Shown: piece after piece, positions 37,601 through 64,000 of the stretch
Position numbering within the stretch: the first letter of the stretch is position 1
How the letters are laid out: every line of letters starts with the position of its first letter
Translations under genes and position numbers: made by a program
Assembly (NCBI RefSeq): GCF_003704095.1
Contig: NW_020844150.1
Coordinates: 62,001-126,000 of the forward strand
DNA: 64,000 nt
Source of the DNA: Pocillopora damicornis
Taxonomy: Eukaryota
Reading direction: 5' to 3'
The notes under the pieces: generated by a model
What the model was told of the DNA's origin: nothing
Database searches by the model: none
Seen by the model: only the letters and a program-made list of their open reading frames with translations

Positions 37601-39768
37601 CTCTGTCAGGGCCTCAGACTCCGACGATGCCCCCCTCAGAGGATCCTTGCTCACCCAATCCTTGTTGGAATGGTGGTACCTGCAACAACAACTCCAATCC
37701 TTATACCTGCAGTTGTGTGTTTGGATACTCTGGCGCCAACTGTGATATAAACAGTTATGAAGGTAAAAACCTTAAGGTTAATATGCATTCAAAAAAGTTT
37801 AGATAGATAGATAGATAGATAGATAGATATATTTCGCCAGAAAGTATTCAAAATATTTATACATGAATAACCTGATAAAATTTTTCCTGTTAGGTTCTTT
37901 TGAAAACTTAGGGCTTATGACTATCAGCTTTCCCCTCCCCCCTCCCCTCCCCTTAATAAGACTAAAATTACAGGAATCATGTGTGGACTATTATTAACGG
38001 AACATAGTGAATATAAAAAAGACAAATAACGATAATAATAATGATCAGAAACACTGAGCACATTCTAAAAAACAAACGAAAAACACAGAAAATTGTGACT
38101 ACTTGAGGAGAATTGAGAAAGCAAAAGTGCTTTTAGTCTATATCTAAAAAGAGAGACAGTAGGGGCATTTGTTCTCTTAAATCTTATGGCAAACCATCCA
38201 GTATCTTTTACATGTCACTGCTTCTATATGCCATTTATTTATTCATCTATTTATTGAAAGAGTTCTACTTTGATTTGTCATTAGTTCCTATAGTTATGTT
38301 TAATGAGAAGTTCCGATTTATGATTTTGCGCTTTCGAGATTACTTTGGATTTGTTGTTACATCTTGTACAGCTACTTGCGTGGCTTGGCCTGTTTGCTCA
38401 TATTTTAGTATCTGACTTTTTGAAAAATAATTTAGATTGTGCTAGTGCCTTGGGCATGCAGAGTGGCGCAATCCCAAATATCAGTGTAACTGCAAGTTCG
38501 ACTTGGAATTCTTACACCAGTGCAAGCTTGGCCAGGCTGAACCTAACAGGGCAAGGGAACTACAGCGGAGGTTGGGTCGCTGGTTTCTTATCTGTCTTTG
38601 AGCATTTGCAAATTGTTTTCGATACAACCGACACTGTTCTGACAGCTATAGCGACACAAGGGAGAGAAGACGCCGATCAGTGGGTCAAAAAATACTATTT
38701 AAAATACAGGAATTCGAATTGGCGCAACTACAAAGACAAACAAGGAATTACATATACTGTGAGTATGATATATACAAGCTTCTTTGAGCGTTATAACTCT
38801 TTAAAGTGGCACAGATGTGTTAACGCTTCTAGAAAAAGTCATATGTTTTTTGTGAGTCCTCTAGAGGGTTGGAGTAGACTTAAATTTGAGCGAGTAATTT
38901 ATTACTCATTGAAAACGTGACTGTTCAAAGACTTAGCTGCTCGTGCAAAGACTTGATTGATGACTTAAAGAGAATAGTTGATTGCTGATGAAAAAACTTC
39001 AACTTTGAATTGTTTTAGGTTTGTTTGAACTCGGATTGATAGCAGTTAGCAATGAATCTTAATGCAAAGAAAAAGTGAGGTAATTAAAAGCAAGATAATG
39101 TTTAACAGAAAAACTTAAATGTCGAAATTGACATTTGAGGGTAAATTTGAATGCTGATAATACTTGAATGTCGAAAATAGCAGCTGGATTTTGTATATGT
39201 TTAAAAAGGAAACTTGAATGTTAAAAATAACTTGAATTTGACGGGAAAATTAACGGCATATTGAATAGTGCAAATTGGACTTCAATGGCAGAAACAAACA
39301 CAATTCAGAGATTGAGTGAGGCATTTTTTAGCGGTGGACTATAACTTTTTATCGTGTTTCATAGGAATCTTTTATAATTTTCATTTTTTTTATGATCATA
39401 GCTTTATATATTATTACTATCATCAACATCATCTTTACAGTTTACAATCAAAAAAACAAAAAGATTTGTTCCTCCTGGCTTGTTAGCAAAGCTCGCAGAG
39501 CCTAAGTAATTTTCGGGCTTTATTCAGTGTTCACTCATGGAAAAATCACTCACATATCACAGAAGTAGCGGAAGTAGTAGTACCAGAAGCGGCACTAGTA
39601 GTAACAGTAGTAACAGTAGTAATAGTAGTAGTAATAGTAGTAGTAGTAGTAATAGTAGTAGTAGTAGTNNNNNNNNNNNNNNNNNNNNNNNNNNNNNNNN
39701 NNNNNNNNNNNNNNNNNNNNNNNNNNNNNNNNNNNNNNNNNNNNNNNNNNNNNNNNNNNNNNNNNNNN

Positions 39769-39804
<36 letters not shown>

Positions 39805-42800
39805 TAGTAGTTTTGGTAGTAGTAGAAGTANNNNNNNNNNNNNNNNNNNNNNNNNNNNNNNNNNNNNNNNNNNNNNNNNNNNNNNNNNNNNNNNNNNNNN
39901 NNNNNNNNNNNNNNNNNNNNNNNNNNNNNNNNNNNNNNNNNNNNNNNNNNNNNNNNNNNNNNNNNNNNNNNNNNNNNNNNNNNNNNNNNNNNNNNNNNNN
40001 NTAATAGTAGTAGTTGTTGTAGTAGAAGAAGTAGTGAGTGTAATAATAGCAGAAGTAGTAGCAGTAATAGTACTGTTAAGAAGTGCCACTTCATTGTCTT
40101 AAGTGTCAACGTCTTTCACGTATCAATAGTTCTGTTTTCTTTTCTTGTTATATTTTACCAATTTTAGGTGTTCCAAGGAAATACAGATCGTAATGGTATT
40201 GTCAGACACGAATTGAGCCCCATTATCAGAGCATCTAAAATTCGCTTTGAAGTGCTGGCGTGGCACAACAATATTGCAATGAGAGTGGAGTTATATGGTT
40301 GCAGTGGTAATTAAAGATTCAAGCATTTTTTCTATTTGTCTTCATCAAGAACGATCAACAGTTGCTAGTTTCCAATTCAAACCTGAAGCTTTGGATGAAA
40401 GCTACTTGAATGATGCACAACATCTAAACCTTTTTTTAAAATTTATTTTAAGACTAATTATTTAGTATATGATGCACAGCGTGATATGAATTAAAAAAAA
40501 AAAGAAAGACTCACTGTACTAAAGTCACAAACCTATTAACTTACACACTGACTCACCAACTCTCTTACTCACTAAGTCACTGACACACTAACTCACTGAC
40601 TCAGTGACTCACTAAATCACTAACTCGCCGACTCACTGACTCACTAACTAACTGACTCACTGACTCACTAACTAACTGACTCACTGACTCCCTAACTCAC
40701 TGTCTCATCGACCCACTGAATCACCGACCGGCGGACTCTTCAACTAACTTACTGACCGACTGACCCACGGACTCACTGACTTACTGACTTCGACTTACTG
40801 ACCCAGAGAATGATTGAGTGGCTCATAGGCAAATAGAGAGAAAAACCGGCTGATCGATTGACAGAATCTTTGATCATTAGTGACTGACTTACTGAACAAT
40901 TCTAGCTGGCTGACTGACAAGCTGACTATGTACCTGCTCCGCCGTGTTCATCATTGACAATATTTCAAATATTCTTGTGCGTTTGTGATAACAACTTTTA
41001 AAACTGTTGGTGATTGGTATTTTCTTTATTTTCATGGCTTACCACTAACGAATTTTATTCATGTTGTACAGATCCCTGTTCGAGCAATCCATGCCTGAAT
41101 AATGGCACCTGCACCAGTGATCCCAGTGGCTCCTACACTTGTGCATGTCCACCGATGTACACTGATTCTCTGTGTGCCACTTTGGAGGGTAGGGCCGAAG
41201 ATTTAAGGGTACAATGGAGTAGACAGTACAATTTTCTCAACGTCAATTTAACATAAACTTATAGTAGGAAGTAATAGTAACCCTCTGCAGCCCTTTGGTC
41301 TCTTGTTAGATATTTTGATATGTCAAACCGTTTTCTAAGAGTTTTTCACCATTCCTGCCATTGCTAATCCAGGTACCAGGGAGTTGCAATGAATTTTACA
41401 TACCTCATCTTTTATATATATGCATACACCCATACATACATACACACATACATTCATGCATACATATAACAACCACACACAATGTCAACACATTTGAGAG
41501 GGCAAAAGGAAACTAAACATGTCGATATCATGACAACATTGCAAATTGGTTACTTCTTGTTGAGCTCTCGATGGCTTTAGTTCTCTAGGGAAGATTTAAC
41601 GTCGGTATTCTTTCGTGTTTGTATGTTATACAGACTTTTGTTTATCAAACCCCTGTCAAAACGGCGGAAACTGCAGTAATACGCAAGATGGCTTCAAGTG
41701 TACATGCCTCATGTGGTACACCGGGAACGACTGTAGCACAAAACGTAATTACATTTCTTGTTTACCAATATATCGCTTATAGCAATCATCAGTTGCTCTT
41801 TGGCATTACAATGATAAAAGAGTTCTAGCAAGGTTCCTCAATGAATGAACGAACTAACGAGGGGACAGGCAAATGAATAAATTGAACAAACAGGGATAAG
41901 TAGATCAGACAGACAGAATGGCAGGTTGAAAGAACCCCTGCCTCGCAGTGACTGACCGCCAAACAGATCAGCTTATCAAGATTGATAGCCTAGCAGACCG
42001 ATAGACTCTGAGGAAGTGCTAACGCTCCAAACTTTAACTTTGAAACTCTTAACGGCGGCCAATTTGCGTTATCAACTCATTTGATAATACCAAATTACCT
42101 TGTTAAACTGTATGTCAGACTGACACCCCTACTTTCTGACCAAATGACACACTGACCGACTCACACACTAAAAATGTGACAGACGGACAGACTGACAAAG
42201 GAACTGAAGGATAGATCGACTGACTGACAGGTCAACAGACGGTTAGAAATCTCGTACATGAGAATTAATTGTGGGGCACAAAATTTTTGACTTGCTGAGT
42301 AATGAGTGTTTCGTTAAAAAAAAGTCATCACCCGACATTTGACAAAAAAACATTTAAAGATCTTTGTAGCTTTTTATGACGTACTTTTACTCTGATATTC
42401 AATCAGAACATTTTTTTTCTAACAACAGAGTGTCACGGGCCTCTTGGGATGCAAAGTGGTGCAATACGAGACCATCAGCTTATTGCATCCTCGGAAAAAG
42501 ACAATTCTTCTAGCGTTCGCTATGCAAGACTGCACTACGAGAACAAAAAGAAGCCAAAGTCTTGGGTACCTTTACTGGACCATAGAGATCAATGGTTGCA
42601 GGTTAATTTGGGGAACGAGCTGACCTGGGTCACTGGTGTAGCTACCCAAGGAAAACAGGGTAAAAGAGGAGCATGGGTCAAAAATTTCCTGCTGAGGTAC
42701 TGGGGAGCTGGAGTACGAGCGCAGTTATACAAGGGTCATGGGGATATCCACTCCAAGGTGAGTGAAATAGAGAATAATCCATGGGCGAGGGTATAAAATT

Positions 42801-45800
42801 GCTCTTCAAGTATTCAATGTTCAAGGATTGCTGTGCTCACCTGTTGAAAAAAATTTTAACACTCGACGAAAAGTCGATACCTACAGGTAACTGTGTATTA
42901 TTTTGTTTATTATGTAAGCAGGACCTTGGATTGATAATGTTGAACGCTTTACCATTCATTCATCAATCTGACAGAGAGGTGCAAAGGGCACACGTGGGCT
43001 GTTTCGGCTTTTCTCAGGAATAAGAAACCTTAAAAAAAAAGAACAAAAAAAAAGGGAAATATAAAACAACAACAACAACAACACCCTGAATGTTTTTTAT
43101 GAAGTCTTAGAAATGCCAGGATTCGCTTAATTCCTTGAGATAAGCTCAGGTGTATTGTCGTGATTTAAAAAAAGTATAAATGGAATGTGGTTAAAACGAA
43201 AGGCTCAAAATTGTGTTTAGTTTCTTCAGCTTGCACTTAAGCTTTAATTTTACTAAGTTCATCGTTCATCATCACCGTAACTGTGATAAATATTATTCAA
43301 TACCTCAGATCCGATGAAGAGGGTTCAGGATATGCTCTAAGATGGAGTGTCCCATCCTCCATCTAAACGGTGGCGAGTGACTGATTCGTCGCTTTTTACA
43401 GTTTAAATTTTCTTTTATTAAGCCTCTTATCAATCTTTCACAGATTACCTTCTTTCCAATTTCAGTTATTTGTTGCAAATACAGACAGTAGCAGCGTTTC
43501 CCGTCATGAACTGGAGCCACCAGTCAGAGCGAGTTTCTTTCGCTTCTATACAAGGCAGTGGCACAATAACATAGCATTGAGGATAGAGCTCTATGGATGT
43601 AGAGGTAATAAAGAATTTTTAGATAAAACACAATCAGTATAACATCTGAAAGCAATTAAAAGCAAATTTCGGATATGAATGGAAAGAATCCATCTTCCAG
43701 CGATCTCTCAAAAATACTTGAGTCTGATTGACAACTGTGCCTGCAAGAATAGCCTTAAGCGGTTGAAAACGAATTACAATGAAAATCATGATTCTCTCTT
43801 GTTACAAGGTTCTGTATATCCATTGGATTTATACTGAAACAATTATATTATTTGCTCTGGATTTAAACTCACAATCGTCTATTCCGTGGTCGTCAACAAT
43901 ATAACAATTAGATCGTAATCACGAAATTTCTTTCGTGTGATATTTGACGAGGGTGAAGCCCGAATCAATTTTCATTCATGGAAATCGAGATCGAATATTC
44001 TTAACGCTTTCGCATGAATCTAGTAATCATTCAAACTTGTTATTTAATTTATAACCGTTCTCATTTAGGCTTCTTTACATAACTCGCCATTTATCATGGA
44101 TGGTGAGCAGAAAAGGGGTACACAAACCTTAGATGCTTAACATAGTCACCGACAGTAATATTCTTGCGAATCTTTCTACTGAGCAACGCTTTGCTGCCAG
44201 ACGCACACTTAACTCTCTCCTCAGTTATTTTTCAAACTTTTTAATTATCTTTTAAAATGTCTTTAGATTCGTGTTTGGCACATCCCTGTCGGAATGGTGG
44301 AACCTGTAACCGTAACTTGAGAACCGGAGGTTACACTTGCAGTTGTCCTTCCACATACAATGGTGATAGATGTGAGATTGGTAAGAGACTTCTCCAGTTT
44401 CAATGAAAACTCGGCATGTTCAGGTTGAATCCAGATCATACCCTCTTTTTCCATTTCATAACAGGTGATGTATGCACACTTAGTCGGCCGTGTTTAAATG
44501 GAGGTACCTGTTTATTCCTTGATTACTGGCCGTACTTCAGATGCAGTTGTCCAGCTGGATACCTGGGCCATGATTGCTGGCATCAAATTCGTAAGGAACT
44601 TCATTATGTCCCTCTTTAGACCTCTAACAAATACATAGACCGAGAATTAAAGAAACAGATAAAAGATGAAGTAATCATGTGATTACATCATCAAACAAAC
44701 AAACAAAAAAGCAAGAACACAGATGGAGGAATAAACTAATGAATTTACAGGCTGATGGACAGACTGAAACAACAGAATGAAAGGTTGCCAGAAAGGAAGA
44801 AAGAGGGAAACATCAATACTGAATGATATAATGAACGAAAATGAAAGGTTGAAAGAGTCACAGAAGGGAAGATTGACCGAATGACAGAATAGCAGAATGA
44901 TATGATGAAAGAGAAAAAGTATTAAAAAAAATTGTTGAATGAGAGAATGACAAGGTGATGGAGTGATAGAAAAAAAAAGCGATAGGCTGACAGCATATCG
45001 AAATAAGAGAATGACAGAATGACTCCATTGACTTACCAGTAAACTAATAACAATGTTTAGACTAGCAGAACTAAAACAGTTAGAAAGTAAGTTTTCAGAT
45101 TAAATATTCTTCTCCTTATCAACAGCTGATCAGTGTTCCCCTACTCCTTGTTTCAACGGAGGAACTTGTGGATACATCAATGAATGGCCGTATTTTGAGT
45201 GCGAATGTCCATTGTCGTACTTAAGTTATAATTGTGGATCCCAGTCAGGTACTATGGTCATTGATGTTATTAGAGGGTGGGATGATGTAGAAGGAGGTGA
45301 CGAGCACAACGCCTCGTTTTCAAAAGGTCCAATCGCTCGGCATCGAGGCTGTGTATCTTACGAAACGTAAAGGAAATGAAGAAGTGACCTCTTGGTTTTA
45401 TTATAGGGGCAAATAAGGTGTGTAAAGGAATTAATGGACTCTTCCATGACAGATAAGCAAGCTCACATATTAAAATTAGAGAGATGAATGCTAATAGATA
45501 ATGTTATGAAAATAAATTAAACCAAACACAAAAGAGAACTCAATTGAAAGTACAATCAGTCATTAGGACACTCTTTAAAAGGTGTTTTTTTGGTGGTAGA
45601 AGCAGGAATAACGAGATGCATGCGAAGTGCCGCGCAATCATTTTGGCTCGGGTTCGGTTCACGTATCTGTATTTACATAGGGGCTAAGTTTGGTTCAATT
45701 GTCATCCATATTCTGGGGGTTTTTCAGAGGTTATTTTAGTTTTCCTCCTTCAACAAAGACAACTTTCCAGATCTTAAATTCACTTGATGCACTAGGTCGG

Positions 45801-48800
45801 ACGTATATCAAGTTTTTCCCTCTGAATTTGACTTTTTTCAGACTTTTTTCATTTTTTTATCTATTCTACAGGTGACCCGTGTTCACCCGAGCCCTGTCTG
45901 AATGGAGGAACTTGTACAGCGGAGAGTAACCCGCTGGGTTTTGAATGCAGCTGCCCTTCAGGGTATATTGGATTTAACTGCGGCGTCGAGCAAGGTATAA
46001 GAAATGCACCAAAAGTGCAATCAATAATTGTGCCAAAGACTCAGTGATTTCATAAATCCTTTAATTGAAGTCCGTTCATCCGTTTGTTTATACGTAAACT
46101 ATTCTGCCCATTTCTTTATATATCAACCAGTCATAAAGTTGCATCAATTTATCAAGTTTATTTTCTTCTTTGTAGGCCTTATTTGAATGAGAACTTAACT
46201 ATTTAGCAGTCTCTCATGGAAGTCAGAGCTATGTATTTATATTGCAAGGTATTGAATATATTTGCATTTTTCTAAGTCAAAGTTCCTCATCAGGTGACCG
46301 ATGCTCGGACAACCCCTGCAACAATGACGGGATGTGCACAGCGGAGAACAACCTTCTTGGATACAGTTGCAACTGCTCTTCAGAATTTGTCGGTTTTGAT
46401 TGCTCTCTTCTGAAAGGTGTTATCGTGTTTACCAGAATAATTGATAACTTTACTTTTTAGACAACGTGAGCATAATATTTACGAAACAACATCATCCCAT
46501 GACGTGTCATAGTTTTGAGTGCTGGTTCGTAATGATGTGTATTTCACAGAGATGTACGCGTACACTTTATGTCCATAGAATCTCTAAATATTTTATGAGA
46601 AAATATTATGGGTGAAACAGAGAATTTTTAAAGACTTTGTGAGTGTTATATTTATGTCGCATAGAAATTATGCTTGTCTGCCATTATCGTGATTAACAAG
46701 TTTACGGAACGAGCTCAACTCATTTCCTACTTTCTAAGCTGTCTTTAGGTTTTGAAACCCAAAAGATAGAAATTTCGAACTTTTAGGTTAGGCATCATTA
46801 TCAAAGATCATTTTTAAGCTGCAGCACGTTTCAAAAGTTTAAGAGCTTTGCTTTGGGTATATCTCTCAATAGATGATCCCTGTCTCCCCAATCCATGTAA
46901 AAATGATGGTAATTGTACAAGGACAGCTGACCTGAAGGATTTCACCTGCAATTGTACCTCAGAATACACCGGTGATACATGTGAGAATAGGATAGGTAGG
47001 ACAGCTTCTAAAAAGTTTAAACGCAAAGTTGTTGTCGTTGTTGTTAAGCTTAATGAACGTAAGAAAGAGGAGAATTCGAGCCTCCTTAGATTAATGGAAT
47101 TTTAGACCTCGAGATATGGCGTTCTATTACCCAACCGCCGAGATAGTTCAGAATACTCTATATTGAGCTAAGCATGAGTAGCATGGAGTATACTGCTACG
47201 ATCAGAAATTTTACAAGCGTCTTGAGCGTGGATAGATAGAGGAGGAAAAGGAGTGGTTTGGCTAACCAACGACTTCTCTTTTGCTCAGTGGTTCAGCATC
47301 ATACCGTGAAATCTTCATTTCTGCGGCCAGCGATATCCCACGGGTCTCCGGTTTACTCTATGCTATACCAAGCACCCATAAGTAATATACTCCTTTTATT
47401 ACCGAGATCAAACGTTTTCGGCGTCAATTTATTTTGGAAGTGGCTGGTCCTTTCATGAAAATGTACTCTTGTCGCATTAAATTAACTTCTTAAATCTTTC
47501 TGGCATTTTCAAGTTCACGGCAACTGGAGCGACTGGAATGAATGGCCCAACTGTAACAAGCCCTGTAATGGCGGATCTAAAACAAGAAAACGCAGATGTG
47601 ATAACCCAGCACCAGCTTTTGGAGGGAAAAACTGCGAAGGTTTACCCACAGAAACGGAGAGCTGTAATTTGGCAAGTTGTCCAGGTTCGGTGTTGCTTGT
47701 ACGATGTGTAGGTTTACTTTCTATGACTTTAATTCTTCGATCGAGATATTCGGTAACCTTTCAAGGTCCATTTATATGACAAAAAATATTAATGCATCTG
47801 CCAATAACTATTTTTTTTCGATTTTCAGCTGAAATGATAAACTACAAACTCAAGTTAAAAAGTAGAGACTGGAACAGCAATCTAGCTAGTGTGGAAACTG
47901 AAGATTACATGGACCTTGAAGATACAATTAAGAAAGAGGTCATTTGTGTTACGACAATTTTAGTCTGTTACACGATTTATGTAAGCATAATTGCCAGTGC
48001 ATTTTACTGACGGGGCGGCACTGATGCCGGTTTTTGGGCAGTCAAATTGTAAAAAAATCTCAAAATTGGTTCATGTGTAACGCGCGTATACAAGGAGTAT
48101 GGATGCATGAAGGAAGTTTTGAGCACAAGAAAGAAGCGTAAGAATTGCTCGAGGCGCAGCAGGAAATAGGGTTAAGGATGAGAGAATCAGGCCACAGAGT
48201 ACGGGCTTTGGGATGCGAAATACGAGAAACGAGGCACGGGACTCTGGATGCGGGGTTAGGGATTTGCTAAGGGTTGGAGTTAAGATTTTTCTAGTTTTGA
48301 ATTTGGCTAAGTTTAGTTCGAGATTAATTTCCTTATTAACGTTTTGCTTTTCTGTTTGTTTGTTTGTTTGTTGGTTTTTTTTTTGTCGTTCTCTCTAGGT
48401 AATCAATTTTTATAACAAAAGAGATGAAGATGTTACAGTGGTGGTTTTAGAGTTCAGGTACGTTATGTAAGTTATGTTTAGGATTCATTAGAAACATGAC
48501 AAGTTTTAGAGAGTACCAGCCTGACTTAATGGTGGAGTGTAACTTATGATAGACTAGCATCCACTTTGTGAGAAGCAAAAATATACCTGCGGTAGTTTCA
48601 TGCAAGTCATGTATGAGGCTTTAAACCTCATTATTACACGATGAAGCGCACTAAACAATATAACATCATGTTATCAACGATTTGTATTCGGAAATGATGG
48701 CTTTAATTCGTCTTCATTTTCAGACCAGGAAGTGTTATTTCTAGTTTTAACGTTACCTACCCTGGAATAGACTCGTTACAGATCGTTTCTCTTCAAGAAG

Positions 48801-51800
48801 AAATAGCGGGAGGTGCATTGGGCGAAACTTCAGCTGAGTTGCTTAACATCACAGCCTCGAATGGTACGTAAGCAAAGTAATTCTCAACTGATGAGTATAA
48901 ATAGCATTGCCGGATTGCGCTGCTTCTTCTGTGATACCCTCCATCATTAGCTTGAGAAGCTAGTACCCTTCGGGCATTTTGCTAGTTTTGGCTCTGAGCT
49001 CACTGCATTGTTCCACTGCGAGACTATATTTTGTTCTACTAAGCCTTCGTAATTTCTTTGGATTTTGACGACTTCCAATCAAGGACGACTCTGATTTGGC
49101 CTATAGTTCTTTTCTCACGCCTTTGGCTTATCGTTGACAAAGATGTAAGATATAAATATTTCTTAAAATGTCTAGAGACGTTAGCTGTAACTATCTCTGA
49201 GAGCTGGCGCTTAATATACCAAAGACTTCTGGAAAAAATGAAAAAAATCCAAAATTTTGCAAAATACGTGTGGCTCATCGATGATTCTTCCTCTTCGCAA
49301 TTGCGTAGTCTTTAATGAAAATGTCTTGTTAGGTTTCAATTTTTAAGCTGCCAAAGTGTCTTATAACTTATGTTAAAAAGGAGACGCTAAAGACCTTCAA
49401 ATAATAAAACGACATAGTATATTTACTTCGGCATTGAGTATGTTCCGGGTCCAAGAGGCATTTTAGCCCAAGCCAGTACATAATGGCAAAGATCAACTCA
49501 AAGAGCTGAGGGCCTAAAACATAATTAGGCCGCGTAGATCATAAGCTGTATGGCCATTATTATGAGAACTGAAGAAATTAAAAACGAAACAGTCTGAACA
49601 ATCGTGAGAGCGGGCTAAAATACATTTTAAACCATCAAAATCTCTGCTCAGCACGCATTACGTGATTTGGATAGCTTTGACAGTATTTTTGTTCCGCAGT
49701 ACCGGGAGCTCCGCTCATCACGGAGGCTACTAGTACCACTTCGACGAGCATTGAGTTGGAATGGACTGCTGTCTTCCAGCCACCTTCTGCTCCACTGCTT
49801 GGCTATGTTATAGTGTACAAAGAAATCAATCGAAAATTCCAACCAGATATTATGAAATCATTACCTCCCAATCCCTCAAAAGCAGTGCTTGAGGATTTAA
49901 AAAAGTTTACTAACTACACCATCCGGGTGTATGCTTTTACAAGCAGCGGAAATGGAGTGTCTAGTAAGGCAGTCTCTGTCAGCACTCAGGAGGACGGTGA
50001 GTCTGAAATATGAGGAGAAAATTTTCAGTTTCTGGGCCAGGCCTCTCGCTAGCACGTCAAATAAATCTATAAAAATCAGCTTAGAGAACTGTGTGTTATA
50101 TCAAAATGACCCCCCTGTTGATCCTGTACATCTGCTTGTACGACATTTTTTGTAAAACTATGCAAATGAATGGTAGGTTACTTACTGTCGGAGTTGAAAG
50201 GGTTGCCAAAGTGAGCTGACTTTGTCTGTGATTTCCTTTTTTTCTCCCACCGTGACAAACACCCCAAATTTCAATTTGATTCGGTAAAAATCGAAGTAAG
50301 AGCCACCATATAGGTGTGGCATTGCTGAAATTAAATTATTCAGGTTTGAGGGATCACAACAGTTGCGCAAGAGAGTAGACCATATACAATTCTTTGTCAA
50401 TTACATGACATTGTCCCTTGCTTTATCTCATTTGTAATGCGGATGAGTTAGGTTTTCTTCAACAAGCTGAATACTTTTCTGTTCTTATAACCTTTCTATA
50501 TTGAACTTAGTACTACTTTTTTCTCTACCCAGTGCCAAGTGAACCGCCTCCCAATAGCGTCATTAAATCTACAAGTGAGAATTCAATCCGTGTGTCCTGG
50601 GAACAAATCAGCCAAGTCCATGTGCATGGAGTACTTCTAGGGTACGAGGTGAGATACGCAATAGATGATGGGTCATCGCCTTGGGTGAGCAAGACACTAG
50701 GTGTAGATGAATATGAAATACATTTAAAAGATCTGGAATATTTCACACCATACAAAGTTGTGGTTTGCGCTAGAACATCAAAAGGCTGTGGCGAAGAGTA
50801 TTCTGACATCGCTTATACGTTTGGAGATGGTGAGTTTATGCACTCTTCTATTCACAGTTAACTCTTTTACTTCCAGAAGTTAAAAAATGTCTCCGTGCAC
50901 CATATTTCCATTTAAAGAGTTCTTAGGGAGAAAAAACAATATATGGGGGATATTGACTGATTTAAAAACAGATTATTAGGGCTGACTTATCAAGAAATAT
51001 ATGGAAGACCGTTATAGAGGATTTTTAAAGGCACAGGGTCAAGGATGGCTTATCAAAAATTAGAAATGACAACCTTCTTTAATATCTTCACAAGTTTTCT
51101 TGATAGAGGATGAAGCAGTCATGAACATAGAAATGTGATGAAGGACGGTTAGCGTAGGCTTTATAGCTGCGCGGAAGAATAACGCGGAAGAATATCGTGA
51201 TGCATAATATTTTTAAGATTTGAAATTGGTTGAGTGCTTCCGAGCCAGCTAGATTTTCAGAAGAAGTCTGGCATATTTCAGCAGTCTTTCGCTAAGGCTC
51301 TGAAATCTTATCAATCAATCTATGGTTTTATCAGGAGCTTTTTTTTCTTAGTACCTAGCAAGCCTCCTCAAAGCGTAGCTGCTGAAAGACTAAAAGCTGC
51401 AGAATTCATTAAAGTCACCTGGAGTCCTGTGCCTTTTGGTTATGTCGGTGGTCTTCTCATGGGGTATTCCATAAACTATCGAAGAATTGTAACAGCTGAA
51501 AAGGAAGTTCTTCCATTGGAGGAGGAAACAGCCACAGCAAAATCAACGGATCTCTTCATATTTTTGAAAGTTCAAACCTACTCAATTTACGAAATTAAAG
51601 TGGCGGCGTTCACTCAAAAGGGCATGGGCCCTTATAGCGATTATGTTTATGGTGGTAAGTTTGGTGCGGGAGTGAAATACCAGGAGAAGAGAAAAATGAT
51701 AGCAGCCTCATTGTAAATTGTTTTCAGAACTTTACTTGAAATTTACTGCCAATTAACTGGCAAGAAGGGGGTTCATAAGCATATTTCAGAGTCTTATGGG

Positions 51801-52107
51801 GGGACGAGGTAAATTATATCTTGATACAAAAAAAATTCTCCAACACCCCCCCCCCCCCCCCCCCCCCCCCTAGGAGATAAGTAATGCAGACCACTTCTTT
51901 ATATGGTGTCGTGATTTGGTTCTCTCGACGAGGGAGAGGTGAGTGGGAGGGTAGGACATTAGCATATTGGTGAGTATTGATTTTTGTCCTTCTGCTAAAA
52001 GAAATGGAATTTGTTTTCTTCTTTTTTTCGTCTTTCCTTCTCTTTTAGAAACCTGTCGCTGTCCGAAAATCCTTTACACTAACTACTGGTCAGCTTCTCC
52101 ATATCTA
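34632..52107 (+). CDS. 5' part of adhesion-ectodomain / GluR0-like K+ channel gene: SP, D8C, 9 EGF, 2 F5/8C, TSP1, SEA, 3 FN3 and the start of the S1 exon (ends at a gap)
   Basis: Exons: 34632-34701 ([23 protein letters not shown]), 35863-36243 (uromodulin/GP2-like D8C: WFRVSGEAG...C.A....L...HP...NCGEFYLY), 37092-37178, 37598-37762 EGF, 38436-38758+40168-40306 F5/8C, 41072-41188 and 41634-41744 EGF, 42429-42757+43466-43604 F5/8C, EGFs 44267-44380, 44465-44590, 45126-45248, 45872-45994, 46294-46416, 46873-46995, TSP1 47514-47684, SEA 47829-47938+48399-48457+48724-48863 (FRPGSV), FN3 49700-49996, 50533-50829, 51352-51654, then 52049-52107 [20 protein letters not shown]. All are phase compatible. 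Confidence 0.85.
39560..40080. repeat. (TAG/TAA)n trinucleotide microsatellite with two assembly gaps (39669-39768, 39831-40001)
   Basis: agtagtagt repeats flank the N runs. The tract lies in the intron that splits the first F5/8C domain. Confidence 0.9.
40540..40930. repeat. (ACTC/ACTG)n degenerate tetranucleotide repeat
   Basis: actcactgactcactaact repeats. Confidence 0.8.
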
Positions 52108-54447
52108 NNNNNNNNNNNNNNNNNNNNNNNNNNNNNNNNNNNNNNNNNNNNNNNNNNNNNNNNNNNNNNNNNNNNNNNNNNNNNNNNNNNNNNNNNNNNN
52201 NNNNNNNCTTCTGCTCCACTGCTTGGCTATGTTATAGTGTACAAAGAAATCAATCAAAAATTCCAACCAGATATTATGAAATCATTACCTCCCAATCCCT
52301 CAGAAGCAGCGCTTGAGGATTTGAAAAAGTTTACTAACTACACCATCCGGGTGTATGCGTTTACAAGCAGCGGAAATGGAGTGTCTAGTAAGGCAGTCTC
52401 TCTCAGCACTCAGGAAGACGGTGAGTTTGAAATATGACGAGAAACCTTTCAGTTTCTGTGCCAGGCCTCCCGCTAGCAGGCCCCGTAAATCTATAAAAAT
52501 CAGCTTAGAGTACTGGGTGTTATATTAAGATGACGCCCTTTTGTTGGTAAGTTTGTAATTATCCTTTACATTTGTTTGTACAACATTTTTTGTATGTATG
52601 TTGTTAAGTATGTGAAGAAATAGCGAGTTAATTACTTTTAGAGCTAAAAGGGTTGCCACGGTGGGCTGAATTTGTTCATGACTTTCTTTTTTTCCCCACC
52701 GTAATAAACACCCTAAGTTTTAAAATTGAAATAAATTTCAAAATCGAAATAAGAGCCACCATGTAGATGTGGCTTTGCCGAAACTAAACCATTCAGGTTG
52801 GACGGATCACAATAGTTGTGCCAGAGAGTAGACCTCATCTCTAATGACGCTGAGTTACGTTTTTCTTTAATCAGCTAAATAAATCTTCTCTACCCAGTAC
52901 CAAGTGAGCCGCCTCCCAATAGCGTCATTAAATCTACAAGCGAGAGTTCAATCCGTGTTTCCTGGGAACAAATCAGCCAAGTCTATGTGCATGGAATACT
53001 TCTCGGCTACGAGGTGAGATACGCAATGGATGATGGGTCATCGCCTTGGGTGAGCAAGACGCTAGGTGTAGACGAATATGAAATAGTTTTAAAAGATCTG
53101 GAATATTTCACACGGTACAAAGTTGTGCTTTGCGCCAGAACATCAAAAGGCTGTGGCAAAGAGCATTCTGACATCGCTTATACGTTTGGTGATGGTGAGT
53201 TTATGCCCTCCTCCATATACAGTTAACTCTTTTATCTCCGGGAGTTACAACCGTCTCCTTGCAGTGTATTCCCACTTAGGGAGTTAATACGAAGAAGGAA
53301 ACATAACTTAAAGGAGAAATTGACTGGTTTAACAACAAATTATAAGGCTAACGTATCAAGAAATATATGGAAGACAGTGTAAAGGTTTTTGAAGGCCTGG
53401 CTTCAAGGATGGCTCATAAAAAATTTATAAATAATCATCCTCTTTAATATCTTCACAAGCTTCGTTAATAGAAGATGAACCAATCATGAACATAAAAATG
53501 TGATGAAGGACGCTTAGTGTAGGCTTCAAATATCATTGATTAATAGCCGCGCGGAAGAATAGCGTGATGCATAATATTTTTAAGACTTGAAATAGGCTGA
53601 GTGCTTCCGAGCCAGCTAGATCTTTAGAAGAAGTCTGGCACATTTCATCAGAGTCTTTCGCTAAGGCTCTGAAATCTTGTCAACCTACGGTTTTGTCAGG
53701 AGCTTTTTTTCTTATCCTCAGTGCCCAGCAAGCCTCCTCAAAGCGTGGCTGCTGAAAGACTAAAAGCTGCAGAATTCATTAAAGTCACCTGGAGTCCTGT
53801 GCCTTTTGGTTATGTGGGTGGTCTTCTCATAGGATATTCTATAAAATATCGAAGAATTGTAACGGCTGAAAAGGAAGTTCTTCCAACGGAGGAGGAAACA
53901 GCCATGGCAAAATCAACGGATCTCTTCATATTTCTGAAAGTTCAAACCTACTCAATTTACGAAATTAAAGTGGCGGCGTTCACTCAAAAGGGCATGGGCC
54001 CGTATAGCGATTATGTTTACGGTGGTAAGTTTGATGCGAAAGAGAAATACCAGGAGAGAAGAATGATAACAGCCTCACTGTAAAATGTTTTTAGAAGATT
54101 ATTTGAAATTTACTGCCAATTAACTGCCACTAAGGGGGTTCATGAGCATATTACAGAGCCTTACTGGGGACAAGGTAAATTATATCGTGACACAAACAAA
54201 ATCCTAAGGCCCCGTCCTCCTGAACATAAGCAATGCAGACCGCTTCCTTATATGATGTCGTGATTTGGTTCTCTCGTTGACGGAGGGGTGAGGGGGAGGT
54301 TAGGACAGTGGGTATTGATTTTTGTCCTTCCGATAAAAAAAAAATGGAATTTTTTTCTTCTTTTTTTCCTCTTTCCCTTCTCTTTTAGAAACATGTCGCT
54401 GTCCGAAAATCCTTTACACTAACTACTGGTCAGCTTCTCCATATCTA
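49784..54447 (+). repeat. Direct duplication of a ~2.3-kb FN3x3 + S1-start block (49784-52107 vs 52208-54447) separated by a 100-N gap
   Basis: Exons are nearly identical and introns are alignable but clearly diverged, with indels. Confidence 0.9.
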
Positions 54448-57400
54448 AGAGTGAACAAACAGGACAGGAAGTTTGGTGGAATATTGAGTAACATTGTCAT
54501 TGACATGATTCAAGTGGCTTGCGACACCTGTCCCGAATACGGTCGTACTATAGTTAAAACTGATTCAAACGGAAAAGGAAAAGATGCCTTCAAGAAAAGT
54601 CTCTTAGGAGTTCTAGCTGACATTGATAATATCCCACAGATAAGTTTCCCGATTTATGGCAACGAATACATCACAAGGTTCATGGGAAGTAATGTCTACA
54701 TAAACCTTGTGGAGTCTCCAGGACTGGCGTTTATTGCTGTTAAGAGGATGCCTGGAACAGCGGCCCGGAACATGATAAGTGCTGTGTTGGATTGCGCTCC
54801 GTTGGTAGTGCTTTCAGGCTGTATGGCATTCATCGCAGGGTTTATCATATGGGTTCTGGTGAGCACCATAAGAACTATTTACTTGTTGCAAAACGTGAAA
54901 TTGGATTTATCTAGTTCAAAACCCCATTAGTATTTGCCACGCTCTAAACAAGCGGCTTTGTACCAAATCAGCATCAAATAGGCGTGAGCTCATTCCCCGT
55001 AGAGGCGTAAATCGGTGCGGTGATGGCAATGTTGTTTAAATTTGTTGGGAATATAAAAAGTTTTTACTTCTCTTTCCCCGAATCGTCCATCGTTTAAGGC
55101 ATAAGCCTTATGAAAATACGCATGAGTTTCTTTCTTTTCTTCTGTCTGAAATCGTGTCTTTTTTCTTATTCGACAATTCCTTGAAATGACATTGTCAAGC
55201 CTCGCTCAGATCAGAAGCGGTAGTTTATTAGAAGTATAAACAATTCTCTTAAACTTTTTTTTCACGTAATAATTTTGAACAGGATATGAAACAAAACCCG
55301 GATGAATTTCCAGCCTCTTTTAGCAAAGGCGTCGGTGAAGGATTCTGGTGGTCATTTATCTCCATGACAACTGTCGGGTGAGAACAGCACGAAAAAATAA
55401 CTATTAGTCACATTACCTTGGTTAAGGACCTGTATCACTTGTTTGTTTCTTTTTTTTTCTTAAATCAGTTATGGAGATCGCTCGCCCCGTTCTGTTCCTG
55501 CTCGTATTTTTGGTATCGCATGGACCCTTACTGGTCTTGTTATTATCTCAGTTCTGATTGGTGCAATATGTTCAGCACTCACGTCTTCTACTATATCGTA
55601 TCCCGTCACCCTCTATGGCACAAAGGTGAGTTATTTCGAAGACTGTCACAACACTTTTCTAACTATTCCTTGCGCTTTGGATGGAATTTCACCAACAAAT
55701 TCGGCAAGTTCAATATCACAAATGGATTTGCATCACAAACGACGCACTGATTAATCAAATAGACTGATTGATTGATTAGCCAACTGACTAATTGATGGAT
55801 TAATTGATCGATCAGTAGATAGAAATTGTAAATGAGTGATTGGTTTTCTTATTGCTTGCTCCTGGACACTCACGAAAGCGTCCTTAATCTCTTGTTTGAT
55901 TTTATATTTAGCAGCAACATGACTATCATTGTATTACTTTGAACGTTTGAGATTTGAGATTTCAGTTTCCTTGGTATGTGGATATATATTTATGTCATTT
56001 CAGGTTGGAGCCATTCAAAACTCTACCGAGCAACGCGTCGGCGTTTTGAAAAACGCAAGAGTAAACGAAGGTAGCATTTGAATTTTCCTTTTTTCTGTGA
56101 TAACTTATCTTCTTCTTTTTTTATTTATTTATTTTTTAACCAAAAGGAAACAATTCATCTGCACGTAGCGTGCGATTTTTCCTTGATATATTAACTTAGA
56201 AAAGAAAAAGTATTTTTTTTTGCTAGACAAGTTCCATCGTCCAAGATTGGAGGTGTCAAAAAATTGAAAAGAATCTTTTGTAAGAAAAAGTTCTCTTTTA
56301 GGGCAGCTGACATGATAAGGATAATTTTCAGCCTCGTGTCATTTACTGCTAACTGTCTAGTGAGTTACTTATTTCTTTTACGGCTTTGTTATTGTGGACG
56401 TCATAGCAAACAATATAATTGATATCATCAATATCAAAATATCAAACACGTTGATCTTTGCGATGCAAGCTTGTGCGGCCGGTTATTTAAACTACCAAAT
56501 CTAAGCAAACTTACTTGGAAATGTAAACTTGCAGCAAAAAAAAGAAAAACAACGCTATTCATAATGCGTGTGGATCAGTAAAGCCGTACGAAAACTTTTT
56601 CATAATCATAGGTCTTAACTTACCTATAACTGAATCATAGATAAGAAATATACCAACTTTGAGGACCTCCGTTCAGCCCTGGAGGATGGAAAAGTTGAAG
56701 GTGCTCTTTTAGACACCTATGTTGCAGCAGAGCACAAAGACGAGCTCTTCAACGACAAAATCTTTGTGAAGGAGATTCTGGACAGACCATTCGGTTATGG
56801 AGTTGTTTTATCAGGAGCGGCAGTGAATGTGGAACAGAGATGTCGCGATTACATCAGCATGCAAATAAGCAAAATATTCCATATCATCCAGAACACAACT
56901 GAGACGCTTGATGTAAGTGTCTCATTTCCTTAAAAAAACGCCTTTGTTTGAGCACATGGAGTATTGCAATAGCTTTTGAGATACTTTTTTCGGTTGGAAA
57001 GGAAAATTTCAATTCATTGTCGTAAAATAATGCAAAGCAATCGCCACGTTCAATCAGAGAAAAGGAGAATATCGTAAGAGCCAATAACAACGCACCGCAA
57101 AACCAATCAAACTGTCTGAAGGGTGGGAAAACGCGAGGGAACAATTTACAAAAGCCGGTTTTATAATTTTTTTTCTTTGAAGCATCGACACCATGTAGTA
57201 CTTTGTCACATAATGTCAGGAACAGTTCTTCAGTGCCTGTTTTTATAAGTACACTTGAATATTTTTGATTGAAAAAGCTTTTTTGTAACTTTTTTTAACC
57301 ATATTTTAAAATCTTTTTGAGATTGGAAAGCGCCAGGATACTGGTGTTAAATAGATATCTTTATCCGGAACGAGTTTTCAAGTACTCTTTGCAACTCTAT

Positions 57401-58707
57401 GTTTCTAAAGTAATAATAAGCTTGCAGTATTGATACAGCCGACATTACCGTCCACCCTCTATCCTTAAAGAAGTTGTATAATCCCAAGCTATTCGTGGCA
57501 CAGTCCATCCACCGAACTAAAAGTATTGTGGCACAGCCTACCCACCAAAGGTACATTGTAGACATCTCTGTGCACTTTGAAAACACTGCTCGTTCTTTTT
57601 TTTTTTTTTTCCGAACTTTAGCCAGCTCCATCAGATGAGGATGTGGAGCAGAGCACGGGCCTGTTTGATGGTTCTTCTGATACGTTCCTTATCGCGATGG
57701 CTTCTTTGATTGGAATGTTAGGAGTTGCTGTCATCGTTGGACTTATTTATCAGTATAAGATATTCGTTCCTCAGGAAAACAAAGGTAAAGTTATTGCTTT
57801 GTTTAAGGGAAACCGAATAGGGTGTCTGGTTTGGTTTATTTCAAATGTGAAAATATAATATATATATAAAGGCAAATGCTTGGGTAGAATTGCGAGATCG
57901 ATTGCTCTTGGTCGCCATTTTGGATTGGTGTGACAGAGATGACGGGTTGGGTAAGAAAAAAAGAAATCTAGCGAAGGAATTCAAAGAAAGACAGACTAGC
58001 ATGTAGAAGGAGATCATGAGGTTTTTTCCCTTCTACTATTTGTCAGCTTATCTTTCCTCTCCCTTTGCGATAGGGACTATTAGCTACCAGAACAACTACC
58101 TCGCGCAAAAACGCGTCCATCGTCAGGAGAATTTGCTCAATTTGACTATTTACTATTCGAGGCTGAGCTTTTACGAGTCATAGTAAAAGTAATCAATAGT
58201 GAATATTTCATCATTTCAGTTGCAAGACTCAAGTCTTCCACATCACATTTTGCTTCGAAAGAAGCCTTTGTTGAAGAAATGAGAGAATTCGTGAACTCGT
58301 TTTATTCTGAGCTGTCCATCAAGATAAATGCGAGCAAAGAGAAGAACAAAGAAGCAATTGAAAAAATCAAAGAAAGAGTTGGAAAGAAACTTGGAGGATC
58401 TGCAAAGAGCTCGAAAATTCCTGGCCTGGTGATAAAAAATCCAGCCTATTCAAGCTCGTCTGCTGAAAACTCCTTCGACTTGAAAAGAAAACTCATCAGG
58501 CCCAGCTCGACAAAAAGCCTTCTCGATCAGACTCAACAATGGAATTCTCCAAATTCTGCAGCACTGAATCGTGTTGAAGTATTGTTGAGGTCAAAAAGCT
58601 CATCCAGTGATCACCGTAAACGTGGTATGGGGTGTGAGACAACTTTGCATAACAGTAAAGCGACGAAAAGTTATACGAAGCCCCGAAAGCTTAATGTTGC
58701 AAAATAG
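52208..58707 (+). CDS. 3' part: 3 FN3 + GluR0-like ligand-binding clamshell (S1/S2) + K+-channel pore (TTVGYGD) + M4 + cytoplasmic tail
   Basis: Exons: 52208-52420, 52898-53194 and 53722-54024 (FN3); 54389-54858 (S1+M1, ...ISFPIYG...ESPGLAFI...LVVLSGCMAFIAGFIIWVL); 55283-55377 (NPDEFP...GVGEGFWWSFISMTTVG); 55469-55625 (YGDRSPRSVPARIFGIAWTLTGLVIISVLIGAICSALT); 56004-56070 (VGAIQNSTE); 56641-56912 (LEDGKVEGALLD...FGYGVVL); 57622-57784 (M4); 58220-58707 (tail, stop). Confidence 0.9.
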
Positions 58708-61624: not shown

Positions 61625-63689
61625 CTATTTTACAATATTAAGCTTTCTGGGCTTCGTATAACTTTTCTTCGCTTTACTGTTATGCAAAGTTGTCTCACAA
61701 CCCATATCACGTTGACGGTGATTATTGGATGAGCTTTTTGACCTCAACAATACTTCAGCACGATTCAAAGCTGCAGAATTTGGGGAATGCCATTGTTGAG
61801 TCTGATCGGGAAGGCTTTTTTTCGAGCTGGGCCCGATGAGTTTTCTTTTCATGTCGAAGGAGTTTTCAGCCGACGAGCTTGAATAGACTGGATTTTTTAT
61901 CACCAGGCCTGGAATTTTCGAGCTCTTTGCAGATCCTCCAAGTTTCTTTCCAACTGTATGTTTTTCTTTGATCTTCTTGATTGCTTGTTTGTTCTTCTCT
62001 TTGCTCGCATTTATCTTGATGAACAGCTCAGAATAGAACGAGTTCACGAATTCGCTCATTTCTTCAACAAAAGCTTCTTTCGAAGCAAAATGTGATGTAG
62101 ATGATTTGAGTCTTGCAACTGAAATAACAAAAATTTCACGATTGATTGCTCTACCATAAATCTTAAAACTCAGGCTATTTTTTTAAAAGCTCAGCCTCCA
62201 AAAGTAAAGAGTCAAATCTAGCAAATTCTCCCGACGATTGCTCCCGTTTTTGAGCGAGTTAGTTTTCTGGTAGCTAATAGTTCCCATCTTGGATTTGCAA
62301 AGGGAGAGGAAGGATAAGCTGACAAGTATTAGACGGAAAACAAACCTCGTCATCTCCTTCCAGCTGCCAGTCTGTCTTTCTATCAATTGCCTCGCTAGAT
62401 TACATTTTTTTTACCCAACCCAGGTCATCTCGGTCACACCAATCCAAAATTGCGGCCAAGAGAAATCGATCTCGCAATTCTTCCCAAGCATTTGCCTTTA
62501 TGTGTAATCTATGTTCACATTTGAAATAAACCAAACCAGACACCCTATTTGGTTTCCATTAAACAAAGCAATACCTTTACCTTTGTTTTCCAGAGGAACA
62601 AATATCTTATAATGATAAATAAGTCCAACGATGACAGCAACTGCTAACATTCCAATCAAAGAAGCCATCGCGATAACGAACATATCAGAAGAACCATCAA
62701 ACAGGCCCGTGCTTTGTTCCACATCCTCATCTGATGAAGCTGGCTAAAGTAAAAAAAAGAACGAACAGCGTTTTCAAAGTGCACAGGGCTGTCTGCAATG
62801 TACCTTTGGTGGGTAGACTGTGCCACGAATAGCTTGAGATTATACGATTTCTTTAATGATAGAGGGTGGTCGGTAATGTCAGTCAGGTAATGTCTATCAA
62901 TACTGGAAGCTTATTATTACCTTAGAAACATAGAGTTGCAAAGAGTGCTTAAAAACTCGTTCCGGATAAAGATATCTATTTAGCACCAATTTCCTAATGT
63001 TCAAAGGCGCTTTCCAATCTCAAAAAGATAAAAAGTGGTTCTATAAAAGTAATAAAAAAGCTAATTCAACCAAGAAAAGTTTTAAGTGTAATTAGGAAAA
63101 ACAGGCACTGATGAACTGTTTCTGATATTACACAAAGTACTACACGGTGTTGATGCTTCAGAAAATAAAACCAGCTTTTCTGAGTTGATCGCTCGCGTTT
63201 TCATGCCCTTCAGACAGTTTGATTGGTTTTACCGTGCGTTCTTATTGGTTCTTTCGATATTCTCCTTTTATCTGATTGAACGTTGTGATTTCTTTGCTTT
63301 ATTTTTACGACAATTAATTGAAGTTTTCTCTTCTAACCCAAAAAAGTACCTCAAAAACCTCTGCATACTCCATGTGTTCAAACGAAAGCGTTTTTTTAAA
63401 GAAAATGAGACACTCACATCAAGCGTTTCTGTTGTGTTCTGGATGATTTGGATTATTTTGCTTATTTGCATGCTGATGTAATCGCGACATCTCTGTTCCA
63501 CATTTACTGCTGCTCCTGATAGAACAACTCCATAACCAAATGGTCTGTCCAGAATCTCTTTGACGAATATTTTGTCGTTGAAGAGCTCGTCTTTGTGTTC
63601 CGCCGCAACATATGTGTCTAAAAGAGCACCTTCAACTTTTCCATCCTCCAGCGCTGAACGGATGTCCTCAAAGTTGGTATATTTCTTAT
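61625..63689 (-). CDS. 3' exons of an inverted paralog of the GluR0-like K+ channel gene (continues beyond the window)
   Basis: Exons 63418-63689 (S2, 272 nt like the + copy), 62581-62743 (M4, 163 nt) and 61625-62118 (tail). Frames are open and splice sites intact. Confidence 0.9.
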
Positions 63690-64000
63690 CTGTGATTCAG
63701 TTATAGGTTAGTTAAGACTTATGATTATAAACAAGTTTTCTCACGGCTTTACTGAGCAAAACGCATTTCCAATAGCATTTTTTTTTTGCTGCAAGTTTAC
63801 ATTTTCAAGTAAGTTTACTTAGACTTGGTAGTTTAAATAACCAGCGACACAAGCTTGCATATCAAAGATCAACTTGTTTGATATTTTGATATTGATGATA
63901 TCAATTGGGTTGTTAGCCATCACGTCCCCAATAACAAAGTCGGAGAAGAAATGAATGACAACCTAAGCAGTGGCAGTGAATGATAAGAGGCTGAAAATTA

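Follow-up and report, generated by a model that had tools for sequence, protein, structure and literature searches.

An ionotropic-glutamate-receptor layout around an intron-split potassium-channel signature in Pocillopora damicornis, and the animal family to which the gene belongs

The window, the whole stretch of 64,000 nucleotides of Pocillopora damicornis DNA that was analysed, carries on its plus strand a gene with the channel layout S1-M1-pore-M3-S2-M4-tail, preceded by FN3 domains. The 3′ part of a paralog lies tail to tail with it on the other strand, and a long series of adhesion-type exons stands to its left.

40162 to 52107, plus strand: adhesion-type ectodomain exons (F5/8 type C, EGF, TSP1, SEA-like, FN3)
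52208 to 54024, plus strand: three FN3 exons joined to S1, the first cut by a 100-N gap, the others at 52898-53194 and 53722-54024
54389 to 54858, plus strand: exon encoding S1 (half of the clamshell, with a periplasmic-binding-protein fold) and M1; the R485-equivalent arginine is absent
55283 to 55377, plus strand: exon with the M1-pore linker, the pore helix (WW) and the first half of the filter, ending in the GG of the first glycine codon
55378 to 55468, plus strand: phase-2 GT-AG intron of 91 nt inside the first glycine codon of GYG, its joint seen in RNA of three of four runs
55469 to 55625, plus strand: exon with the rest of the filter (YGD), the M3 inner helix with its GluR0-type gate region, and the M3-S2 linker
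56004 to 56070, plus strand: exon with the start of S2, supported by RNA and an open frame
56641 to 56912, plus strand: S2 exon with the conserved acidic residue equivalent to E/D705
57622 to 57784, plus strand: exon with the S2-M4 linker and the third membrane helix, M4, which bacterial relatives do not have
58220 to 58707, plus strand: exon with the C-terminal tail (cytoplasmic by the inferred topology) and the stop
61625 to 63690, minus strand: tail, M4 and S2 exons of the inverted tail-to-tail paralog, whose M3 exon lies just past the window end

Joined, the exons of the plus-strand gene leave 769 codons open, with GT-AG ends at every intron and three hydrophobic helices. Between the second FN3 exon and the tail there are eight junctions, each of them covered by RNA contigs from at least two runs, and a single contig of run X7 (836 nt) spans FN3-FN3-S1; no one RNA contig was found to hold the whole gene. 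Two of the three FN3 exons in 52208-54024 are over the Pfam fn3 cut-off; the frame of exon 55469-55625 taken alone matches Ion_trans_2 at E 1.2e-4 and Lig_chan at E 1.5e-3, neither of which passes the cut-off. In 142 codons compared between the twin copies there are 23 silent and 5 replacement differences. The open frame, the RNA and this excess of silent differences rule out a pseudogene.

The first-pass annotation had proposed a phase-2 donor at 55377, an intron of 91 nt and an intact TTVGYGD across the joint 55377/55469, and each of these was borne out. RNA contigs from which exactly 91 bases have been removed were found in runs X1, X7 and X8, that is, in three of four runs and in three studies; one contig of run X6 reads unspliced into the intron. 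The upstream exon (55283-55377) ends in GG, the downstream exon begins at 55469, and splicing yields MTTVG-YGD in an open frame that is lost when the intron is kept. Ten GT/AG pairs lie near the junction, three of which keep the frame, and only 55378/55469 preserves both the pore helix and the filter. The two other frame-keeping pairs lose the pore helix and are absent from the RNA contigs of the four runs, so that alternative junctions can be set aside. An X7 contig of 362 nt was used to tell which of the two near-identical paralogs is spliced: it has no differences from the window copy's S1 exon over 54652-54857, and we infer that its remaining 156 nt are the 95 + 61 nt that flank the next joints. 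The M3 end reads LIGAICSALT in the spliced frame, as had been noted. The motif was also described as hidden by the intron, which holds for raw genomic open reading frames and not for the public protein model of the closest relative, P0002, in which it is present.

The arrangement of the two copies is probably affected by the assembly. At a 100-N gap (52108-52207) the series of ectodomain exons that begins at 40162 breaks off, with only the first 60 nt of an S1 exon present; after the gap the sequence restarts in the middle of an FN3 domain and is followed later by the inverted copy of the 3′ exons. Past the window end, the paralog's M3 exon adjoins a second 100-N gap (G000:C785), and a second ectodomain follows on the minus strand. 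We think that the block 52208-64898, bounded by the two gaps, is probably inverted in the scaffold; flipping it gives two complete tail-to-tail genes with about 1 kb missing at each gap. The RNA pairings agree with this reading: X1 RNA shows 0-1 differences from the left FN3 copy and has the 6-nt insertion that marks the tail of the paralog, and X7 RNA agrees with the right FN3 copy and the window's S1 exon. The ectodomain exons at 40162-52107 thus probably belong to the paralog, and the filter exons (55283-55625) probably receive their distal ectodomain from beyond the window. Inversion of the block would also account for the truncated inverted paralog and for an apparent 2.4-kb tandem duplication of FN3 exons, which is probably an assembly effect and not genuine. 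The architecture of the gene with the filter exons is the same whether or not the block is inverted.

Exons with a cysteine-rich stretch like the N-terminus of the homologue P0003, with EGF and with F5/8 type C domains lie at 35811-38917 and probably open the left ectodomain; a signal-peptide exon was not located among them. A SEA-like exon at 48707-48871 has a GSVI motif that is common to all 14 long homologues. Motifs of the GS[VIL][VIL] type mark SEA self-cleavage in mucins, and we take the one in the window to be a possible self-cleavage site. On the minus strand, 8600-29400 holds exons of at least one large gene, with TSP1-like, lectin-like and unrecognised coding stretches. Further family fragments in both orientations, among many N gaps, lie on the same contig (L002-L003, G000:C785:134001-151958) and are either extra copies or assembly debris.

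The closest public protein, P0002, is annotated as "uncharacterized"; it is a model from Pocillopora verrucosa, 1424 aa long, with 96% identity over the S1 exon. It consists of F5/8 type C, EGF, TSP1, weak SEA and FN3 domains followed by an ion-channel pore; in Pfam its Ion_trans_2 match (E 8.3e-13) is over the cut-off and its SEA match (E 8.5e-4) is under it. Structures were predicted for relatives of the window gene, namely the channel part of P0002, which shares 93% identity with that encoded in the window, and a second family member. The P0002 model (pLDDT 84.5), which has a helix after S2 at residues 374-407, best matches GluR0 (1iiw, Z 20.0, rmsd 3.0, 210 aligned) and 2pyy (Z 19.6), the 1iiw match spanning model residues 3-351, a clamshell split into S1 and S2 around M1-pore-M3. 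Periplasmic binding proteins (Z 18.3) and AvGluR1 (Z 16.7) come lower, and whole-chain matches include the AMPA receptor LBD-TMD (E 5e-13) and NMDA receptor chains. The second model gives the same order, led by 2pyy (Z 21.5, rmsd 2.5, 204 aligned). Since GluR0 is only slightly ahead of plain periplasmic binding proteins in both (20.0 versus 18.3, and 21.5 versus 20.3), the fold is uninformative on the ligand.

In the spliced gene the TxxTxGYG(D) signature follows the pore helix and lies between two membrane helices. The best 60 matches of the family pore profile among solved structures are all K+ channels, and the pore-helix WW is conserved in at least 90% of the family. The gene product combines a glutamate-receptor layout with a full K+ signature; that such a layout surrounds the signature had been claimed before, and both the exon layout and the fold matches support it.

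The gene is one of many. Channel modules of this kind were found in stony and soft corals (one of the latter), anemones, Hydra, Hydractinia and one jellyfish, and in the acorn worms Saccoglossus, Glandiceps and Ptychodera; this range is a lower bound, because the deep profile alignment included FN3 columns and proteins matching FN3 alone filled part of its 150 rows and crowded out distant members, and species names were looked up for 30 unnamed matches only. We counted as members the 135 of 289 proteins that span at least 300 channel-module profile positions, which excludes fragments and FN3-only matches. TTVGYGD is present in 106 of them and [TS][TS][VIL]GYG in 125; SYTANL occurs in none of the 135. 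Residues before S1 number more than 110 in 64 members and 110 or fewer in 71, some of these truncated and others, such as Hydra P0045 and acorn worm P0295, complete. Where ectodomains are present they are of several types: CUB-Ig, EGF/C1q, SRCR-FN3 and LamG/pentraxin/MAM/FN3. Altered filters were seen in P0159, P0190, P0237 and P0022 (SSGNWD, GSQGFGD, GTHGFGD and TTVGFGE); by sequence, these are candidates for non-selective or modifier subunits.

A search of the coral's own genome with the post-intron exon gave 51 loci, a lower bound for that search that may include haplotype duplicates. A phase-2 acceptor precedes YGD at 47 of the 51, 45 of these with a matching donor, and an unsplit filter occurs at none, which rules out an intron peculiar to this gene; judged from these sequences, the intron in the filter glycine codon appears ancestral to the whole family. 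The loci L016, L207, L208 and L223 were not called by the intron pattern, yet match the profile. S1 and S2 exons both fall within the retrieved stretch at 39 loci, and a comparison with PF00060 gave 37 exon-level matches, 6 of them at family loci. Four to five members are clustered on each of the contigs G000:C629, C2502, C374, C2563 and C2688, which suggests repeated tandem duplication.

A tree, without AvGluR1, Lambda, plant or protist sequences, was built from 48 family rows, 24 bacterial-type rows (22 random full-length, the other 2 on viral contigs) and 19 canonical receptors pieced together from exons of the same coral. The family and the canonical receptors fall on separate, fully supported branches, with the acorn worms inside the family, and a 39-row repeat again separates the two (15 and 10 rows) with full support. 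Free trees split the bacterial rows, which are biased in that they come from the best 80 of 528 loci, chosen by filter pattern; forcing them together is not rejected (p-AU 0.195), and neither an independent bacterial origin nor gene transfer is shown. We infer an old animal family, from the intron shared among the coral loci and from the range across cnidarians and hemichordates.

The M3 gate had been singled out as differing from SYTANLAAF, as it does; it is, however, not peculiar to this one gene. Compared column by column, M3 of the family is of the bacterial GluR0 type (resembling S-x-F-T-A-x-I-x-S-x-L-T) and homologous to SYTANLAAFLT, so that a novel gate is ruled out; by sequence the gate appears to be old, not new. 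The window copy has itself diverged from the family consensus, with LIG and Cys versus FTA and Thr in most members. Among the canonical coral receptors the N and Y columns of SYTANLAAF are fixed in 18-19 of 19. A K+ pore can, by one report, be gated by an iGluR clamshell without SYTANLAAF (PMC6385376), and by analogy a GluR0-type gate would be compatible with clamshell gating.

The ligand pocket is where the family departs from its relatives. R485 is described as the key contact to the ligand alpha-carboxyl, and D705 as contacting the amino group (PMC12226733). The D/E705 equivalent is present in 48 of 48 family rows, and the S-x-E motif and PPY are also conserved on the pocket side. At the R485 position, scored by sequence alignment through a variable loop with small insertions and not from model coordinates, arginine is found in 2 of 48 family rows, versus 22 of 24 bacterial-type and 19 of 19 canonical rows; the window copy has Ile in the alignment. 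Arginine two columns to either side occurs in 3 and 5 of the 48 rows, counted from the invariant proline, every other S1 offset has it in at most 18 of 132, and T or S stands at the T480 position in 9 of 48. The role of R485 could be taken by an arginine from another part of the protein. Nevertheless, loss of the alpha-carboxyl contact makes glutamate, as far as the residues go, an unlikely ligand.

How the family stands toward known channels can now be set out. GluR0-type proteins (Synechocystis GluR0, 1iiw; Nostoc, 2pyy; "Group 1" of PMC2950845) have the same S1-M1-pore-M3-S2 order, a TxVGYG filter, a very similar pore helix and M3, and the best fold match in both models; unlike them, the coral family has M4 and a tail, spliceosomal introns, conserved S1 cysteines and often a large adhesion ectodomain, whereas the bacterial rows stop before M4 and, in 22 of 24, keep the carboxyl-binding arginine that the coral family lacks. 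The rotifer protein AvGluR1 (Adineta vaga, PDB 4io2), compared here by description and by fold only, likewise comes from an animal and has both M4 and a TXVGYG filter (PMC12332018, PMC11479355); it is described as having eukaryotic iGluR architecture and being activated by amino acids (PMC12332018, 10.1101/2021.01.27.428399). Its fold match (Z 16.7 and 18.7 in the two models) is below that of GluR0, and the coral family differs from it in having adhesion modules or nothing before S1 and about 50 copies. Canonical iGluRs (AKDF, NMDA, Epsilon and Lambda) share the three membrane helices with a re-entrant loop, the clamshell, the D/E705 equivalent and M4; the coral family has a K+ signature in place of their Q/R/N pore, no SYTANLAAF (0 of 135) and no R485, and Pfam found no iGluR amino-terminal domain in the members checked. 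Adhesion-type receptors such as receptor phosphatases and contactins share the SEA, FN3, TSP1 and EGF modules and have no channel, whereas here such a stalk is joined to an iGluR-type clamshell with a K+ pore.

We consider it reasonably probable that the gene encodes a stalk-tethered, tetrameric K+-selective channel, opened through its clamshell by a stimulus other than glutamate and hyperpolarising or shunting the cell. Four subunits would assemble, as in GluR0 and iGluRs. S1 and S2 would lie outside the cell and the pore loop would enter from the cytoplasm, an inverted K+ pore, given the extracellular modules before S1 and the hydrophobic N-termini of complete homologues. Closing of the clamshell would then pull M3 open, again as in GluR0 and iGluRs, and K+ would leave the cell, hyperpolarising or shunting it. 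A pocket that keeps the acid for an amino group, without the carboxyl-binding arginine, would make an amine-type or other non-amino-acid ligand likelier than glutamate. The stalk of FN3, SEA, TSP1 and EGF modules would anchor the channel in matrix or mucus or on a partner cell, and gating may be tuned by it. K+ selectivity and hyperpolarisation, proposed from the filter in the first-pass annotation, are plausible from the sequence; GluR0, with the same signature, is reported to be K+ selective (PMC12332018). GYG is described as not sufficient for selectivity, as in HCN channels, since residues outside the filter count (PMC9614928), and the window filter keeps its threonines and the pore-helix tryptophan pair.

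The same stalk raises the idea, which we think unlikely, of a K+ channel gated by adhesion or force, in which the clamshell has given up small-molecule binding and relays a pull or the binding of a partner from the ectodomain, possibly after SEA-like self-cleavage. The ectodomain is fused directly to S1, GS[VIL][VIL] lies in the SEA-like region of all 14 long homologues checked, SEA is listed for P0003, P0004, P0009, P0012 and P0019, the ectodomains are highly varied (CUB-Ig, EGF/C1q, LamG/pentraxin/MAM/FN3, SRCR), and the R485 and T480 equivalents are both mostly lost. However, with 71 of 135 members having at most 110 residues before S1, and complete short ones among them, the core appears to work without a stalk; D705, S-x-E and PPY suggest that a ligand site is retained, and the SEA match of P0002 is under the Pfam cut-off. 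Quite improbable, in our view, is a channel whose clamshell is structural, either a background K+ channel that needs no ligand or a cation channel of weak selectivity. A placozoan receptor without the ligand-backbone residue D705 is reported to leak constitutively (PMC12226733), as is a K+-pore chimera without SYTANLAAF (PMC6385376), and HCN channels are a precedent for weak selectivity (PMC9614928). Yet some 50 diverged paralogs with varied ectodomains would fit a sensory repertoire better than a leak, and unlike HCN the filter retains TT and WW. Ordinary amino-acid gating as in GluR0 or AvGluR1, which answer several amino acids (10.1101/2021.01.27.428399), with the carboxyl held by another residue or an ion, is the least probable. 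In its favour, the nearest folds are amino-acid binders and D705 is retained; against it, the key carboxyl contact R485 (PMC12226733) is missing in 46 of 48 rows and no other S1 offset supplies an arginine in more than 18 of 132.

In the literature GluR0 is described as having no M4, and from animals a single example, AvGluR1, is cited (PMC12332018, PMC11479355, PMC3483616, 10.1101/2021.01.27.428399); a 2010 paper gives the glutamate-receptor body with a K+ filter as limited to bacteria (PMC2950845). The sections of the 2025 and 2026 phylogenies that name iGluR groups list only AKDF, NMDA, Epsilon and Lambda (PMC12226733, PMC13648236). Our search, which covered literature outside subscription, found no description of the family; an earlier mention is possible. 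Neither TTVGYGD nor family accessions occur in the six searchable supplementary files of PMC12226733 (a picture PDF, perhaps a clustering figure, lay outside the search) or in the one supplement file of PMC13648236, whose alignments are in an outside archive. The family has apparently been missed by the iGluR surveys, which are described as using canonical receptors as queries and filtering on M3 and ligand motifs (PMC12226733, PMC13648236), and by the cnidarian K+ channel survey, which in its stated scope is of voltage-gated channels only (PMC9989356).

What is new here is the family, of the GluR0/AvGluR1 kind; the intron and the gate are ordinary within it. A glutamate-receptor body with a K+ filter is otherwise cited from bacteria and from one rotifer gene, the latter as an evolutionary intermediate, and in cnidarians, with acorn worm members, it forms a large, intron-rich, expressed family. 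If the pore is K+ selective, cnidarians possess directly gated inhibitory cation channels by the dozen, and the transition from a K+-selective GluR0 to the non-selective iGluRs could be tested in Nematostella and Hydra, whose short members lend themselves to cloning. The adhesion ectodomains would offer a possible direct route from touch, mucus or cell contact to membrane potential. One can envision, though we would not count on it, a fifth and so far overlooked branch of animal iGluR-type channels that predates the cnidarian-bilaterian split: K+-selective inhibitory sensors in their dozens, which would respond to non-amino-acid ligands or, through swappable adhesion ectodomains, to contact and force.

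The searches also turned up further sequences. A metagenome scan with an acorn-worm protein gave four loci. Among viral contigs there were 80 loci, and the top two, L121 and L122, were examined; these are bacterial-type (GluR0-type) channel genes with the K+ signature and without M4, on contigs of a viral collection that may be viral or host DNA. Finally, locus L101 (G000:C2500:194000-200000) holds a canonical glutamate receptor of 966 aa that is intronless, whereas its relatives are intron-rich.
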